DNA of 64,000 nucleotides from a virus (taxonomy: Duplodnaviria; Caudoviricetes): the IMG/VR virus record IMGVR_UViG_3300026442_000101; one strand, given 5' to 3'. The position numbers and the translations under genes are program-made. Shown here one piece after another: positions 5,132 to 34,123 of this stretch. Numbering within the stretch: the first letter of the stretch is position 1; every line of letters begins with the position of its first letter. The notes below the pieces were generated by a model that saw only the letters and a program-made list of their open reading frames with translations, was not told the origin of the DNA and did no database searches.

Positions 5132-5809
5132 TCACTGTTCGATGACGAGCTTACCGTACTGTTCGCATACCAGCCTGTGGCCTTGCGAATCCAGCAGAGG
5201 GTGGACAAACGTGTTGCCCCGCAGCTGGTAATCGAGAGCAGCCATTTCAGCGATCAGAGACGGTGGTACGTCCCATGGCGCTTTCATGGCTTTAATCTGC
5301 TCTTCAGTAGGTTCGAGGTGAACGTCGATGCGATGGTTCAGTTCCAGTGGTCCTGCCTTGTACAAGCGGCAGAGGATCATTGGCGGCTGTGGTTCGAACA
5401 TCTTGTCGCTGTCGATCCGAATACTAAACAGATAACCATCGATCTCACGAACGACCTCAGCCACCACCGCCAGTACGTGCTTCGACCGGAACTGTCGTGG
5501 CGCCTGGTTGAAGGTGACGTTGCCGATCCACGGCAGGTCGGAGTAATGGACGTCTTCAAGATCTGGGATATCCTCTAAGCTACCTGCTGCCGTCTTCTTC
5601 TCTTGCCTGACTACACGAATGCGGCGGCGCATCACGTCGGACTTATTGTCGGGCAGACCCCAGTAAGAAATCTCTGCAGACTTCTTCTTGCGCAGCACTT
5701 CGAACACACTGCTGTTCGCGATGGCGATTTCACGGTGACCGGCGGTTTCCTCTACGGGAATATAGATCACCTTGATCGCTGTTTTCTTTGCTGCCTGCAA
5801 CATATTCAT
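5132..5809 (-). CDS. hypothetical protein
   Basis: 225-aa ORF with GGAG SD. Confidence 0.75.
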   Translation of the reverse strand: MNMLQAAKKTAIKVIYIPVEETAGHREIAIANSSVFEVLRKKKSAEISYWGLPDNKSDVMRRRIRVVRQEKKTAAGSLEDIPDLEDVHYSDLPWIGNVTFNQAPRQFRSKHVLAVVAEVVREIDGYLFSIRIDSDKMFEPQPPMILCRLYKAGPLELNHRIDVHLEPTEEQIKAMKAPWDVPPSLIAEMAALDYQLRGNTFVHPLLDSQGHRLVCEQYGKLVIEQ

Positions 5810-6972: not shown

Positions 6973-7283
6973 GCCAAGGCTTGTTGGTTTAATTGTGCCA
7001 TCGCAGCGACATAGCGCTGCGATTGGTCGAGGGTCATGGCCACCGTATCCAGATTGATCGTAACCATAAACTCTCGAGTTATAGGCGAATACTCGACTAA
7101 GACCTTGCGCATACCGCAGTAACGCTTGACGGCATTGCGCAGTTGGTCAGTGACGCGTTTGAAGCACAGAGAATCAGCACCCAGCCTGAACTTGCGTTCT
7201 ACCTGACCTGTCTTACTGCACAGGTTGATCGATACGTCAATGCAAGCGTTGATTTCACTGTCGAGTCGTTCAGTGTGGGACAT
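6966..7283 (-). CDS. hypothetical protein
   Basis: 105-aa ORF in operon. Confidence 0.7.
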   Translation of the reverse strand: MSHTERLDSEINACIDVSINLCSKTGQVERKFRLGADSLCFKRVTDQLRNAVKRYCGMRKVLVEYSPITREFMVTINLDTVAMTLDQSQRYVAAMAQLNQQALAC

Positions 7284-30405: not shown

Positions 30406-30933
30406 TCAGTTGACCCGAAGGATCACTTGATCACGACCACCGCGTTGAGCCAGCCATTCGTAGAACTGCGTATACTTCATATTGCAGAAGAAGTAACTGG
30501 CATCGTCGACGATGATGAGCTTTGCTGGGGGAATAGGATCGGGCAGACCTTTCTTCCGATGCAGGATCGAGCGCTTTACTTCGTATGGCGTACACACACG
30601 AACGCTTTCTAATTCTGCACGGGGATACCCGATGAAATCAGGGTTCTCGTTCGCACAGTTCTGGATCAGCATCTTCTTGATCCTGAGGTTCGGTACGATG
30701 TAGAGCGCCTCACCTACCAGGTTGAAGATCTGAGCCAAAGCTCTGGTACGGCCGGTCTGACGTGGGACGAAGAACCCCACAGTCTTCCAGTCACGCAACC
30801 AGATGTCGTCTGGAGGAGCTGCCCTTCTGTACTGTTCCTCGAACCACTCCTGTTCGGCGTGGAATGGCGCCAGCAGGCTCTGTACCATCTCCTTCGGATT
30901 GAAGGGAGGTTGTGAGACCGTTTTCTTACTCAT
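30406..30933 (-). CDS. small P-loop NTPase-like protein
   Basis: PRQTGRT Walker A-like and IIVDDA Walker B-like. Confidence 0.6.
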   Translation of the reverse strand: MSKKTVSQPPFNPKEMVQSLLAPFHAEQEWFEEQYRRAAPPDDIWLRDWKTVGFFVPRQTGRTRALAQIFNLVGEALYIVPNLRIKKMLIQNCANENPDFIGYPRAELESVRVCTPYEVKRSILHRKKGLPDPIPPAKLIIVDDASYFFCNMKYTQFYEWLAQRGGRDQVILRVN

Positions 30934-31349
30934 CTTGTAATCTCGCCTTTATATTCAAACGGTAAGTTCGCCTTCTCAGCGATCTTCCGTAAAACGTTTA
31001 TGCTTAAGTGTCGGTGACAGAACTTACCGGGACTACAATAGCACGCAATGGCCACCTCACTGTCTCGTCCCAATTCGAGCAGATCGTAGAAAGACCGACG
31101 CCAACTACCGTACCGATCGCGTAATAGCGCTAGGTATTGTTCGGTATACATCTCGTCGGTTATGAGCTCGCCCTTGTGGTTCATGACCATCGTCCAAGTG
31201 GGTGCGAGAAACTCGTACTCCACAGCTGACTTTACCGTGGTATCGGCCAGGATGATTCCCCTATCCTGCACCAGTCTCCACTGGCTAATCTGCGCTGTCC
31301 AAAAGGCCATGCTAAGCTCCGGTATTCTCTGACATACATTTGCCAGCAT
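30930..31349 (-). CDS. DUF488-like protein
   Basis: ACYCSPGKFCHRHL motif. Confidence 0.6.
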   Translation of the reverse strand: MLANVCQRIPELSMAFWTAQISQWRLVQDRGIILADTTVKSAVEYEFLAPTWTMVMNHKGELITDEMYTEQYLALLRDRYGSWRRSFYDLLELGRDSEVAIACYCSPGKFCHRHLSINVLRKIAEKANLPFEYKGEITR

Positions 31350-31397: not shown

Positions 31398-31530
31398 TAG
31401 GCCCCGAGCGGGAGATTTGAACTCCCCACCAACTAATAAACGACGGACACGGGAAAGTGCGTCAGGCATGAAACCCTTTCCAGTATATCGTATCGCAGTT
31501 CGCCGGAGTAGCGCCAGCCGCTAGCCAGGG
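31398..31530 (-). ncRNA. tRNA-scaffold RNA NC1 (133 nt): acceptor, D-like hairpin, long insert, T arm, G-CCTA end
   Basis: Acceptor CCCTGGC/GCTCGGG; T arm GGGAG-TTCAAAT-CTCCC. Confidence 0.55.
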
Positions 31531-31948: not shown

Positions 31949-31963
31949 TGCACTCTCTCCTAA

Positions 31964-32115
31964 TAGGTCTCCAACATACCCAGTGTATCGCCTATTGTAT
32001 TGTTGAGCGGTCGCAGTTAGGATTTCGGGTCGTACCTAAATTTTCCCCATTGCTGGGCGATGTCCTGATGTAGCGTTTTGGACGATTGCGACACTTTAGC
32101 GATACCACGTTGGAA
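31964..32115 (-). ncRNA. structured RNA NC7 (152 nt) closed by an acceptor-like stem, ending A-CCTA
   Basis: TTCCAACGT/ATGTTGGAG, GTATCGC/GCGATAC, GTCGCA/TGCGAC, CCCA-GCAA-TGGG, TTAGG/CCTAA. Confidence 0.55.
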
Positions 32116-32117
32116 AA

Positions 32118-32245
32118 TAGGTCTCCACCCGTGTTTTCGAGACACGGACCTCACTCATGTACCTGATCCACGCCGAACCCCGAAGGGATGGGCATGTTCG
32201 GAATCGAACCGAAAGAGTGCGCTCTACCATCTGAGCTAGGCGGAG
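32118..32245 (-). ncRNA. tRNA-scaffold RNA NC2 (128 nt) with permuted mini-tRNA in the anticodon arm
   Basis: Acceptor CTCCGCC/GGTGGAG, D arm, stem CACTC/GAGTG around 58-nt insert holding a second T arm. Confidence 0.7.
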
Positions 32246-32252
32246 ATAAAAC

Positions 32253-32978
32253 TTACGCGCAGCGGTAGTTCGGGTTCTCGAGAACAACCTCGAGGTCGAA
32301 GAACAGCTCGGTCTTGATGCTGGACGGCACGGTGATGGAAAGCAAGGCGCGCTCAGGATCTACCTTCAGGTAGATGTCTTCAGCACCAGGGATGCTGAGG
32401 GTGTAGTTCTGAGTACGCTGACCTTCGATCTGCTTGATAGCAGAGAGGTCATGGGACAGCTTGATACCATCGGCCGTGCGGACGTTGTTGAAGCGGATAG
32501 CGCCGACGCTGTCGGTCAGATCCAACACGCTGGGATCGCCGAAGCCGAACACGTTGAACTTACCATCGACCAACGGCAGGTTCTTGGCTTCGAGGCGACG
32601 CTCGGTAGCGCGGCCAATGCGACGACGCAGGACAGTGGAGTACTTGTCCATGAACGCGCCTTGCTGCATCATCATGTCTACATCGAGATCGGAAAGACCT
32701 TCAGGCTTGGCGCCCTGACCCACGTTGTAGAGGAACGAGCACAGACCTTTGTGACGCGCGGTCAGTTGCGCTTGCTCGATAATCATGCGCTGGACATGCG
32801 CCGGGCGGCTGTCGATGTGACCGAGCGGCAAGTGATCTTTCAGGAACTGCTCTTCCGATTGCCAGGTTACGTTGCCGGCTTCGTCTTTGACGTTGTAGCC
32901 AGGCTTACCATCTTCGCCGGATTGAGACGACCAGGCGAGGACAGTAACGTTCTTGTTCACCAGATAGTTCTGAGTCAT
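32253..32978 (-). CDS. multidomain hypothetical protein with crAss001_48-like helical hairpin
   Basis: QRMIIEQAQLTARHKGLCSFL...QQGAFMDKYSTVLRRRI pattern. Confidence 0.7.
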   Translation of the reverse strand: MTQNYLVNKNVTVLAWSSQSGEDGKPGYNVKDEAGNVTWQSEEQFLKDHLPLGHIDSRPAHVQRMIIEQAQLTARHKGLCSFLYNVGQGAKPEGLSDLDVDMMMQQGAFMDKYSTVLRRRIGRATERRLEAKNLPLVDGKFNVFGFGDPSVLDLTDSVGAIRFNNVRTADGIKLSHDLSAIKQIEGQRTQNYTLSIPGAEDIYLKVDPERALLSITVPSSIKTELFFDLEVVLENPNYRCA

Positions 32979-33006
32979 GAAAGATCTCTGCGGGTGGTTG
33001 GATGAA

Positions 33007-33095
33007 TAGGGCGTTCCTCGTGGATTTGAACCACGGACCTTCGGCGTGTCTTTTAGCTAAGGGGCCGACGCTCTAACCAGCTGAGCTAAGGAACG
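33007..33095 (-). ncRNA. tRNA-scaffold RNA NC3 (89 nt) with 18-nt anticodon loop
   Basis: All four tRNA stems perfect; loop CCCTTAGCTAAAAGACAC; ends C-CCTA. Confidence 0.75.
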
Positions 33096-33099
33096 AGAA

Positions 33100-33213
33100 T
33101 AGGGGCTTCCTCGAAGAATCGAACTTCGGACTTCCGCCAGGTATGGTGAGCCTGCCCCATTTAAGGGGCCAGGAGGCTCGAAGACGGCACTCTACCAACT
33201 GAGTTAAGGAAGC
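33100..33213 (-). ncRNA. tRNA-scaffold RNA NC4 (114 nt) with 44-nt hairpin insert replacing the anticodon loop
   Basis: GCTTCCT/AGGAAGC, CCGTC/GGCGG, CGAAG-TTCGATT-CTTCG; ends C-CCTA. Confidence 0.75.
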
Positions 33214-33220
33214 ATGTAGC

Positions 33221-33496
33221 TTAAAGCAAACCTTCCGAGATCATGAACTGTTCGAGGTCATCAAAGAAACCATCGTACAGGATTTCGGTACCGGCAAAAC
33301 CTTTCCAGCGCCACCACTTAGGTTCTTTACCCATAGCGGTGATGCTTTCTTCGGTTTGCTTTCTGAAGAAATTACCGACCTTATCGAACGCAACGAGGTC
33401 GGTGGTGTAGAGATCCCCGTGGACGTGCAGCAGCCTGATTATCTTGGCTTCCAGTTCTGGACTAACCTCGAGTTCTTTCAGTTGCTTATTGCGCAT
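33221..33496 (-). CDS. hypothetical protein, 91 aa (start reassigned to MRNK)
   Basis: The longer start overlaps the NC5 RNA. Confidence 0.7.
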   Translation of the reverse strand: MRNKQLKELEVSPELEAKIIRLLHVHGDLYTTDLVAFDKVGNFFRKQTEESITAMGKEPKWWRWKGFAGTEILYDGFFDDLEQFMISEGLL

Positions 33497-33512
33497 CACA
33501 AGTTTCTCTGAA

Positions 33513-33664
33513 TAGGGAGCACTGACTGGAATTGAACCAGTGACCTTCGTCAAGTTGGCCTTACGCTCTAACCAACTGAGCTAATCACCCATACGGGCGA
33601 TGCCGGACTCGAACCGGCGACCTTAAGGGAGGGACGACGCTCTACCAAACTGAGCTACAGTGCT
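33513..33664 (-). ncRNA. nested double tRNA NC5 (152 nt): outer tRNA containing a complete circularly permuted tRNA
   Basis: Outer AGCACTG/CAGTGCT and TCGTC/GACGA; inner GGGTGAT/ATCGCCC and TAAGG/CCTTA; two D arms, two T arms; ends C-CCTA. Confidence 0.85.
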
Positions 33665-33670
33665 ATTGAA

Positions 33671-33821
33671 TAGGTAACTCTAGCAGGGAATCGAACCCGC
33701 TGCCTTCCTCATGTTTGCGTCTACCAATTCCGCCATTGGCCGATAGTGCCGGCCAAGCAGGACTCGAACCTGCAATCCTTTTCAGGAAGGTGAGGACGCT
33801 CTACCAATGAGCTACAGAGTT
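33671..33821 (-). ncRNA. nested double tRNA NC6 (151 nt): outer tRNA containing a permuted Leu-type tRNA lacking its anticodon arm
   Basis: Outer AACTCTG/TAGAGTT and TCCTC/GAGGA; inner CGGCCAA/TTGGCCG, D arm TGGCGGAATTGGTAGACGC; ends A-CCTA. Confidence 0.8.
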
Positions 33822-33823
33822 AG

Positions 33824-34122
33824 AATAAGCGCCTGGGGAGGACATTCCCCAGGTCTTGCCACTAATTACCCTAGTGGCCAAGGTGCCTTCATATCGCTTC
33901 AGGCAGGTTTGCGCGGTACTAGCTAGTGTCTGACCATGCTAGAACAGTGCTCGGCATGTGCGGCGCTGGCGCTTCCCTGATAACTCAAAGCCAACAGACT
34001 GGCTCCTCGTCGTCGTAGGGTCTAATGTAACTACAAAGCCTTACGTGCAGCTATAGCGCCTCGGGTAGGGAGGGCACGGGGCTAGGATCTTAGGCTTGGC
34101 ATAGGAGTACCGAGCTTCTGAT
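33824..34122 (-). ncRNA. candidate ~300-nt structured ncRNA
   Basis: No credible ORF; hairpins GCCACTAG/TTAGTGGC, CCTGGGG/CCCCAGG; flanked by tRNA-Gln and NC6. Confidence 0.4.
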
Positions 34123-34123
34123 T

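Follow-up and report, generated by a model that had tools for sequence, protein, structure and literature searches.

Locus and neighbouring genes

The sequence analysed here, which we call the window, is a 64,000-nt stretch of DNA from a virus of the class Caudoviricetes (IMG/VR record IMGVR_UViG_3300026442_000101). We examined a non-coding element of this window, E6, and the genes around it, which are all on the minus strand. Read along this strand, the order is a 241-aa gene, the tRNA-shaped element NC2, E6, a ribosome-binding site and a 67-aa gene.

32978-32253, minus strand: 241-aa gene, related to the Pfam family crAss001_48
32116-32247, minus strand: NC2, tRNA-shaped upstream neighbour of E6, kept in relatives (alignment; exact 29-mer core in common)
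31962-32115, minus strand: E6, non-coding element of 154 nt, consisting of a body, a discriminator A and a CCTATT tail
31961-31953, minus strand: ribosome-binding site, directly after the CCTATT tail of E6
31948-31745, minus strand: 67-aa DUF1653-type gene (phrog_9138, E 2e-28)

The distance from the end of E6 to the start codon of the 67-aa gene is 13 nt. We refer to the latter as the DUF1653 gene, an annotation carried by a phrog_9138-type homologue in phage pPa_SNUABM_DT01. The closest cultured carriers of the gene are Pseudomonas jumbo phages, with a protein identity of 62-68%.

Using ARAGORN and Rfam, we recovered four ordinary tRNAs (Ile, Tyr, Asn and Gln) at 34530-34124, every one with an encoded CCA. 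Below them, the same tools returned tRNA-like matches with abnormal anticodon regions, and the neighbours of E6 score between 25 and 63 bits. The motif CCTATT occurs on the minus strand at six sites within 31962-33674, each of which ends a tRNA-like element and is preceded by an acceptor-type strand and one discriminator base; over the whole window its count is at chance level.

We noted two other features of the cluster. The non-coding stretch of about 295 nt from tRNA-Gln to the first two-headed element (33828-34123, minus strand) is 83% identical to positions 5233-5535 of relative L005 and contains a terminal 8-bp GC-rich hairpin (33853-33832). Rfam returned nothing for it at E<=10, and the z-score of its fold reaches only -1.4; it is a candidate for a conserved ncRNA or a processing region. 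Just downstream of the last tRNA-like element (31398-31530), a gene at 30930-31349 (minus strand) encodes a 139-aa product that matches Pfam DUF488-N3a ('Active DUF488-N3 subclade', E 6e-7).

Boundaries and predicted structure of E6

An earlier note on this DNA had placed an apparent intergenic gap just after the CCTA of NC2. The placement is right, as the 5′ end of E6 directly follows the CCTATT of NC2 at 32116, with zero gap between the two. The closing pairing and the A-CCTA end described in that note are also found on the minus strand, where TTCCAACGT (32115-32107) pairs with ATGTTGGAG (31977-31969), followed by the discriminator A and by CCTATT (31967-31962). The closing helix is 9-10 bp long, end to end. 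RNAfold reproduced all the inner helices that the note had listed, i.e. a second helix of 7-8 bp, a third helix, GTCC/GGAC, CCCA-GCAA-TGGG and TTAGG/CCTAA. The parts of the element are as follows.

32106-32115, minus strand: 5′ strand of H1, the closing, acceptor-like helix (MFE structure and closure statistic); the base at -1 is U
31969-31978, minus strand: 3′ strand of H1 (MFE structure and closure statistic), followed by A31968 and by CC at 31967-31966
32098-32105, minus strand: 5′ strand of H2 (MFE structure), continuous with H1 on the same strand
31985-31992, minus strand: 3′ strand of H2 (MFE structure), with a 6-nt bulge (31979-31984) between H2 and H1
32006-32095, minus strand: H3, formed by 32095-32087 with 32015-32006 (MFE structure) and enclosing hairpins H4, H5 and H6
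32083-32062, minus strand: hairpin H4, 4 bp with a 14-nt loop (MFE structure)
32060-32044, minus strand: hairpin H5 with a GCAA tetraloop (MFE structure)
32039-32017, minus strand: hairpin H6, 5 bp with a 13-nt loop (MFE structure)
32116-32127, minus strand: copy 1 of a 12-nt direct repeat, the 3′ end of NC2 (last 5 nt of the acceptor strand, A and CCTATT)
31962-31973, minus strand: copy 2 of the 12-nt direct repeat, the 3′ end of E6 (exact sequence repeat)

The 12-mer TGGAGACCTATT does end both NC2 and E6, as had been noticed before. As a trait of the family it finds no support; it also forms the exact direct repeat bounding the indel described below, and the window contains exactly two copies of it (32116-32127 and 31962-31973). 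The agreement in length between E6 and the elements NC5 and NC6 is numerically true and carries no weight, with copies in relative L005 of about 146 and 157 nt.

We compared E6 with the tRNA class and with the local CCTATT-ended tRNA-scaffold RNAs, represented by NC2 and the elements at 33826-33005. The earlier expectation that the lack of D and T arms would hide the element from tRNA finders turned out to be correct; neither ARAGORN nor Rfam (RF00005) calls a cloverleaf on 31962-32115, even at E<=10. At its end, E6 has a stem and A-CC, but the third base is T and not A. With the local family it shares the strand, the cluster and the whole design of the end, that is, a terminal helix of 7 bp or more, one discriminator base, CC followed by TATT, and U at -1, the base found in every neighbouring element. 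In contrast, E6 lacks the family body, in which D and T arms form an elbow and an insert occupies the anticodon position; it has no D arm, no T arm and no anticodon-type stem, its interior is dissimilar and it is not kept in relatives. The family-like parts are only the terminal helix of 9-10 bp, the discriminator A, the CC and the U at -1. E6 is not a tRNA mimic.

Folding of E6 compared with the background

The end-to-end closure of E6 is non-random. Ten consecutive end-to-end pairs were present in 2.1e-4 of same-length segments of window DNA, a figure that applies to an element with both ends fixed by flanking tail motifs, as is the case here; with the 3′ end alone fixed and the length free to vary from 80 to 200 nt, the frequency is 2.1%. 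In total folding energy, E6 does not stand out from the genome background. The MFE is -42.1 kcal/mol, with a z-score of -2.07 against dinucleotide shuffles (RNAfold), and 73% of all same-length minus-strand segments, or 44% of the GC-matched ones, fold as well as E6 or better. The plus strand of the region, with a z-score of -1.37 against its own shuffles, is relatively no better. We also folded E6 within a context of 321 nt. The inner helices persisted and the closing helix was replaced by other pairings; as the conserved NC2 was misfolded in the same prediction, this fold decides nothing.

H1 contains three non-Watson-Crick positions, all of which are G.U on the minus strand and A.C on the other strand, a strand bias that counts for little since the helix search itself allowed G.U. 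The first seven pairs resemble the acceptor stem of NC2, and at the three pairs that differ (1, 5 and 6) the pairing is kept each time; the stem differences between the paralogous neighbours at 33213-33098 and 33095-33005 are likewise pairing-preserving. The T that opens the 12-mer is Watson-Crick paired in E6 and forms a G.T wobble in NC2, and the relatives have G-C, which suggests that the last 12 bases of NC2 have been homogenised with, or exchanged for, the end of E6.

Comparison with related phages

The relatives available for comparison are three IMG/VR contigs (L001, L002 and L003), matched by the 241-aa protein with 76, 76 and 67% identity. L001 does not differ from L002 in this region, and with L003 the set amounts to two distinct sequences. 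Protein-anchored searches with the 241-aa gene and with the DUF1653 alignment both yielded only these same three contigs, in which the DUF1653 gene is 88-91% identical to that of the window. All three have a homologue of NC2 whose 45-nt core is identical, and the NC2 of the window differs from these homologues by compensatory changes in three stems (acceptor, anticodon-type and outer T). In the alignment of NC2 (32116-32247) to L001 3738-3866 and L003 1478-1610, the invariant 45-nt core corresponds to the inner T arm and the hairpin.

E6 itself is absent from all three relatives, where the A-CCTATT of NC2 runs directly into the ribosome-binding site and the start of the DUF1653 gene, and the conservation with compensatory changes seen in NC2 does not extend to it. 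The relatives keep NC2 and four other members of the family. By BLAST synteny, window positions 33215-32116 and 31972-31745 align to adjacent positions in the relatives, with an overlap of 11 nt, and both copies of the 12-nt repeat align to a single L005 site (7160-7170). Because the flanks are adjacent in the relatives and both repeat copies map to one site, E6 is, on these alignments, a clean 154-nt indel made up of the interior and one copy of the repeat. The junction between tail and ribosome-binding site before DUF1653 is the same in both states, being formed by NC2 in L001-L003 and by E6 in the window.

The cluster differs from the relatives in other units as well. We identified two further blocks present only in the window with respect to the three relatives, one at 33510-33215 with a 92-codon frame that has no reliable family match and one at 31744-31533 with a gene for a 62-aa DUF2158 protein; unlike E6, both are without an obvious flanking direct repeat. 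For their part, the relatives have a tRNA-Asp(GTC), a tRNA-His(GTG) and an extra CCTA-type-ended element that the window lacks (L005 4885-4961, 5510-5582 and about 5590-5725, respectively). This extra element is tRNA-shaped, has a large insert at the anticodon position and ends in C-CCTAGC. The tRNA-Gln of the window was not called by ARAGORN in L005 4600-7500. From these comparisons the cluster is seen to evolve by gain and loss of whole units, and the absence of E6 alone is therefore no proof of junk. As for the direction of the indel, a gain of E6 in this phage is mildly favoured, since nothing E6-like is present in any other phage examined. Judged by its absence from the three nearest relatives, E6 is dispensable for the lineage.

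Cultured phages with a DUF1653 homologue (pPa_SNUABM_DT01, Noxifer and Psa21) have a different upstream gene and no E6. In Psa21 (L009 1926-2725), the homologue lies inside a tRNA cluster with an HNH endonuclease gene directly before it, and in pPa_SNUABM_DT01 it overlaps the end of the thymidylate synthase gene. The site upstream of the small DUF1653 gene appears to be a recurrent insertion point.

Searches for homologues and known RNA classes

Covarying homologues, on whose presence the earlier note had staked its proposal, were not found as far as the data reach, the three relatives being without E6. The searches, which combined BLAST, exact scans, Rfam, ARAGORN, a covariance model and tblastn, returned no homologue, and hence there is no covariation for E6. 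Among 50,697 phage records, megablast and blastn (word size 11) gave only a match to tRNA-Asn and one chance 30-mer. Exact-pattern scans of IMG/VR with four segments of E6 were empty for three of them, and the fourth hit a 20-mer in a RecT-like ORF that did not extend. A scan of bacterial genome contigs with E6 resulted only in a chance 20-mer in an Arcicella MAG, and a metagenome scan with the conserved NC2 core returned only the already-known 14-kb contig. There is no second copy of E6 in the window, in the loci compared with it or in the whole records of the relatives. The Rfam and Infernal checks that the note had proposed came back empty: no Rfam family matched E6 on either strand, at the gathering threshold or at E<=10, and a single-sequence covariance model of E6, run on the window, the relatives and five loci of cultured jumbo phages, with about 144 kb of near and distant jumbo-phage DNA covered, matched only E6 itself.

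In local alignments of the interior with the six other elements, the scores were at the level of shuffled sequences, and we rejected on this ground an origin of the interior by decay from a copied NC2 or two-headed element. A promoter within E6 was also rejected, as we found neither sigma-70-like sites nor an intergenic-enriched 7-mer. A search for an antisense target within the window gave only chance complements of 11 nt.

Several known systems resemble E6 in part; in function, the closest among those described are hairpin-type RNase P substrates, the T4 RNAs RNAC and RNAD, and the t-elements and acceptor-stem-like stem-loops of plant mitochondria. Hairpin-type substrates of bacterial RNase P include the 4.5S RNA precursor and the C4 RNA of phages P1 and P7. 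E6 has, like these, a long helix of its 5′ and 3′ ends and a single-stranded 3′ tail that opens with purine-C-C; it is, however, multibranched and has no sequence relation to them, and the analogy is only functional. YrlA and other Y RNA-like RNAs (RF02553) also have ends that pair into a long stem and are found in phages beside tRNA-like modules. E6 has no tRNA-like module and no match to the RF02553 covariance model at E<=10, although the neighbouring two-headed elements match it partially. MITEs are multi-copy, whereas E6 is present once in the window and not at all in the relatives and collections searched.

In phage T4, RNAC and RNAD are small stable non-tRNA RNAs of the tRNA region with unknown roles (Uzan and Miller 2010, PMC3014915). 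The likeness to E6 is by description only, as a small non-tRNA sequence within a phage tRNA cluster; unlike these two RNAs, E6 is known from sequence alone, and even close relatives do not conserve it. In plant mitochondria, t-elements and acceptor-stem-like stem-loops are partial tRNA mimics at mRNA ends, some of them reduced to an acceptor-like stem-loop, and are proposed or shown to direct cuts by RNase P or RNase Z that set the mRNA termini (Forner et al. 2007, PMC1920247). E6 is like them in its acceptor-like end, and it lies directly 5′ of the ribosome-binding site of an mRNA. However, t-elements are organellar, and true t-elements keep the T arm that E6 does not have. In the papers searched we found no description of the CCTATT-ended family or of an E6-type element in phages.

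Alternative explanations

The explanation that we tentatively prefer, and that we regard as quite possible, is that E6 is a lineage-specific accessory cassette of the N-CCTATT-ended RNA cluster, co-transcribed with its neighbours and excised via its acceptor-like handle. It has to be weighed above all against a neutral recombination scar. In that case, illegitimate recombination at a short homology would have put, or left, about 142 nt of foreign or filler DNA at the NC2/DUF1653 junction; the 12-nt repeat would be the duplicated junction and any RNA a functionless by-product. The indel is indeed clean and bounded exactly by the repeat, and E6 is an orphan sequence missing from the relatives. 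Its ordinary fold energy, a GC content of 49%, like that of intergenic DNA, and the fact that non-coding gaps of 150-330 nt are common in the window are consistent with such an origin as well. A random insert, however, would close with ten end-to-end pairs only about 2e-4 of the time, and here the closure is in register with the discriminator and the family tail. Moreover, five of the pairs are formed with bases of the repeat, which would require a coincidental complementarity between the left end of the insert and its target, and all imperfections of the helix are G.U on the transcribed strand. We consider a scar unlikely on balance. The repeat could also be read as the mark of a miniature mobile cassette, non-autonomous and served by a recombinase or transposase in trans, which targets the 3′ ends of tRNA-like genes and carries a replacement copy of the end. 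Integrases target tRNA 3′ ends, and the circle junction of such a cassette would consist of two inverted arms of about 8 nt with the tail motif between them, as in the core site of a tyrosine recombinase. The 12-nt direct repeat of the target 3′ end, the imperfect terminal inverted repeats that overlap it at the ends of E6, a size within the MITE range and the HNH endonuclease gene at the equivalent place of Pseudomonas phage Psa21, upstream of DUF1653 in a tRNA cluster, all point in this direction. But no second copy was found in the window, the records of the relatives, the 50,697 phage records or the exact scans of IMG/VR, none of the neighbouring genes scanned encodes an integrase or transposase, and were the 12-mer a target duplication, the inverted repeat would not begin at the left end of E6. 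A mobile cassette is in our opinion quite improbable.

The position of E6, which ends 13 nt before a start codon and directly before the ribosome-binding site, with no terminator-like site between it and the DUF1653 gene, would suit a cis-acting 5′ leader, a structured RNA that stays on the mRNA and tunes its stability or translation. Yet the ribosome-binding site is unpaired in the E6 fold, the relatives express the same gene without E6 and no Rfam riboswitch or leader matched, which makes a leader improbable. That E6 encodes a small protein or is itself a gene remnant can hardly be credited. A 45-codon GTG frame (32154-32017) and a plus-strand open stretch of 43 codons cross the region, but the start of the GTG frame lies inside NC2 and lacks a ribosome-binding site, and no frame with a start codon is open across E6. 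For the longest frame within E6, tblastn gave no hit in any of the phage records at E<=10, and the only 20-mer match, in a RecT-like gene, fails to extend. With no credible frame and no tblastn match, we rejected the coding reading.

The processed cassette is favoured over these explanations by the closure with ten pairs, found in 2.1e-4 of same-length segments, and by the A-CCTATT that follows the helix as at five neighbours, with T at -1 throughout. It is also favoured by the H1 mismatches, all G.U on the transcribed strand, and by the differences from the NC2 stem at pairs 1, 5 and 6, which keep the pairing as those of the adjacent paralogues do. The tail-to-RBS junction kept with and without E6 argues for it too, as does the lack of an ORF of its own in a cluster where gain and loss of whole units is normal. 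On the other side stand the lack of homologues, and hence of covariation, and the absence from the three nearest relatives. The ordinary folding energy, two inner hairpins with only 4-5 bp and loops of 13-14 nt, the missing tRNA elbow and the loss of the closing helix in the 321-nt fold, in which NC2 is misfolded too, also speak against it.

Possible processing of E6

NC2, E6 and the DUF1653 unit have the same orientation and no gap separates them; E6 is probably co-transcribed with the other two. The features that RNase P recognises in bacterial tRNA processing are a helical stem of the acceptor type, U(-1) and a purine-C-C on the 3′ side. Exonucleases acting from the 3′ end stall at CC, and the CCA-adding enzyme repairs N-CC ends. 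RNase P and the 3′ trimming and CCA repair machinery use such helix-end determinants on tRNA precursors as well as on hairpin-type substrates, although full recognition by RNase P and the CCA enzyme normally uses the tRNA elbow. Under the cassette explanation, RNase P would cut at the base of the E6 helix, which would free the 3′ trailer of NC2 and at the same time set the 5′ end of E6. The UAUU tail would be cut or trimmed, so that the transcript yields, besides NC2, an RNA of roughly 150 nt and a short-leader mRNA whose 5′ end lies a few bases upstream of the ribosome-binding site. E6 would bring its own copy of the processing handle, and the junction before DUF1653, which NC2 provides in the relatives, would survive its presence. 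The transcription, cleavage and stability of E6, as well as any function of its body in trans, are what we infer from this arrangement.

A more specific version of this model is that E6 is expressed and precisely processed to an RNA of about 150 nt, in which the tRNA-mimic design is stripped to a handle (acceptor helix, discriminator and CC) that excises and stabilises a non-tRNA cargo. We consider this version rather unlikely. If it were true, the cluster would be a modular expression system of handles and cargoes, a natural counterpart of the laboratory tRNA-scaffold trick, with cassettes swapped between phages by recombination at the common tail motif.

If E6 is made and processed at all, a tRNA-type acceptor helix and an N-CC tail would be enough to punctuate a polycistronic phage transcript, with no need for a tRNA body, and a hypervariable cluster of tRNA mimics would gain whole RNA cassettes at a fixed junction. 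E6 would then also serve as a handle-only control, provided by nature, for experiments on its two-headed tRNA-mimic neighbours, which are more remarkable than E6 itself. Should E6 be a scar instead, the tail motif would still be marked as a hotspot of recombination or indels. As E6 is not conserved and its function is putative, its value lies mainly in the context it gives to the family.

One short sequence in the interior concerns the tail. E6 contains AATAGG on the minus strand (31991-31996), the exact complement of the six-base tail motif (CCTATT on the plus strand), and this hexamer could pair with the unprocessed tail of E6 itself or with that of a neighbour. The chance expectation for such a 6-mer in 150 nt is about 4%.
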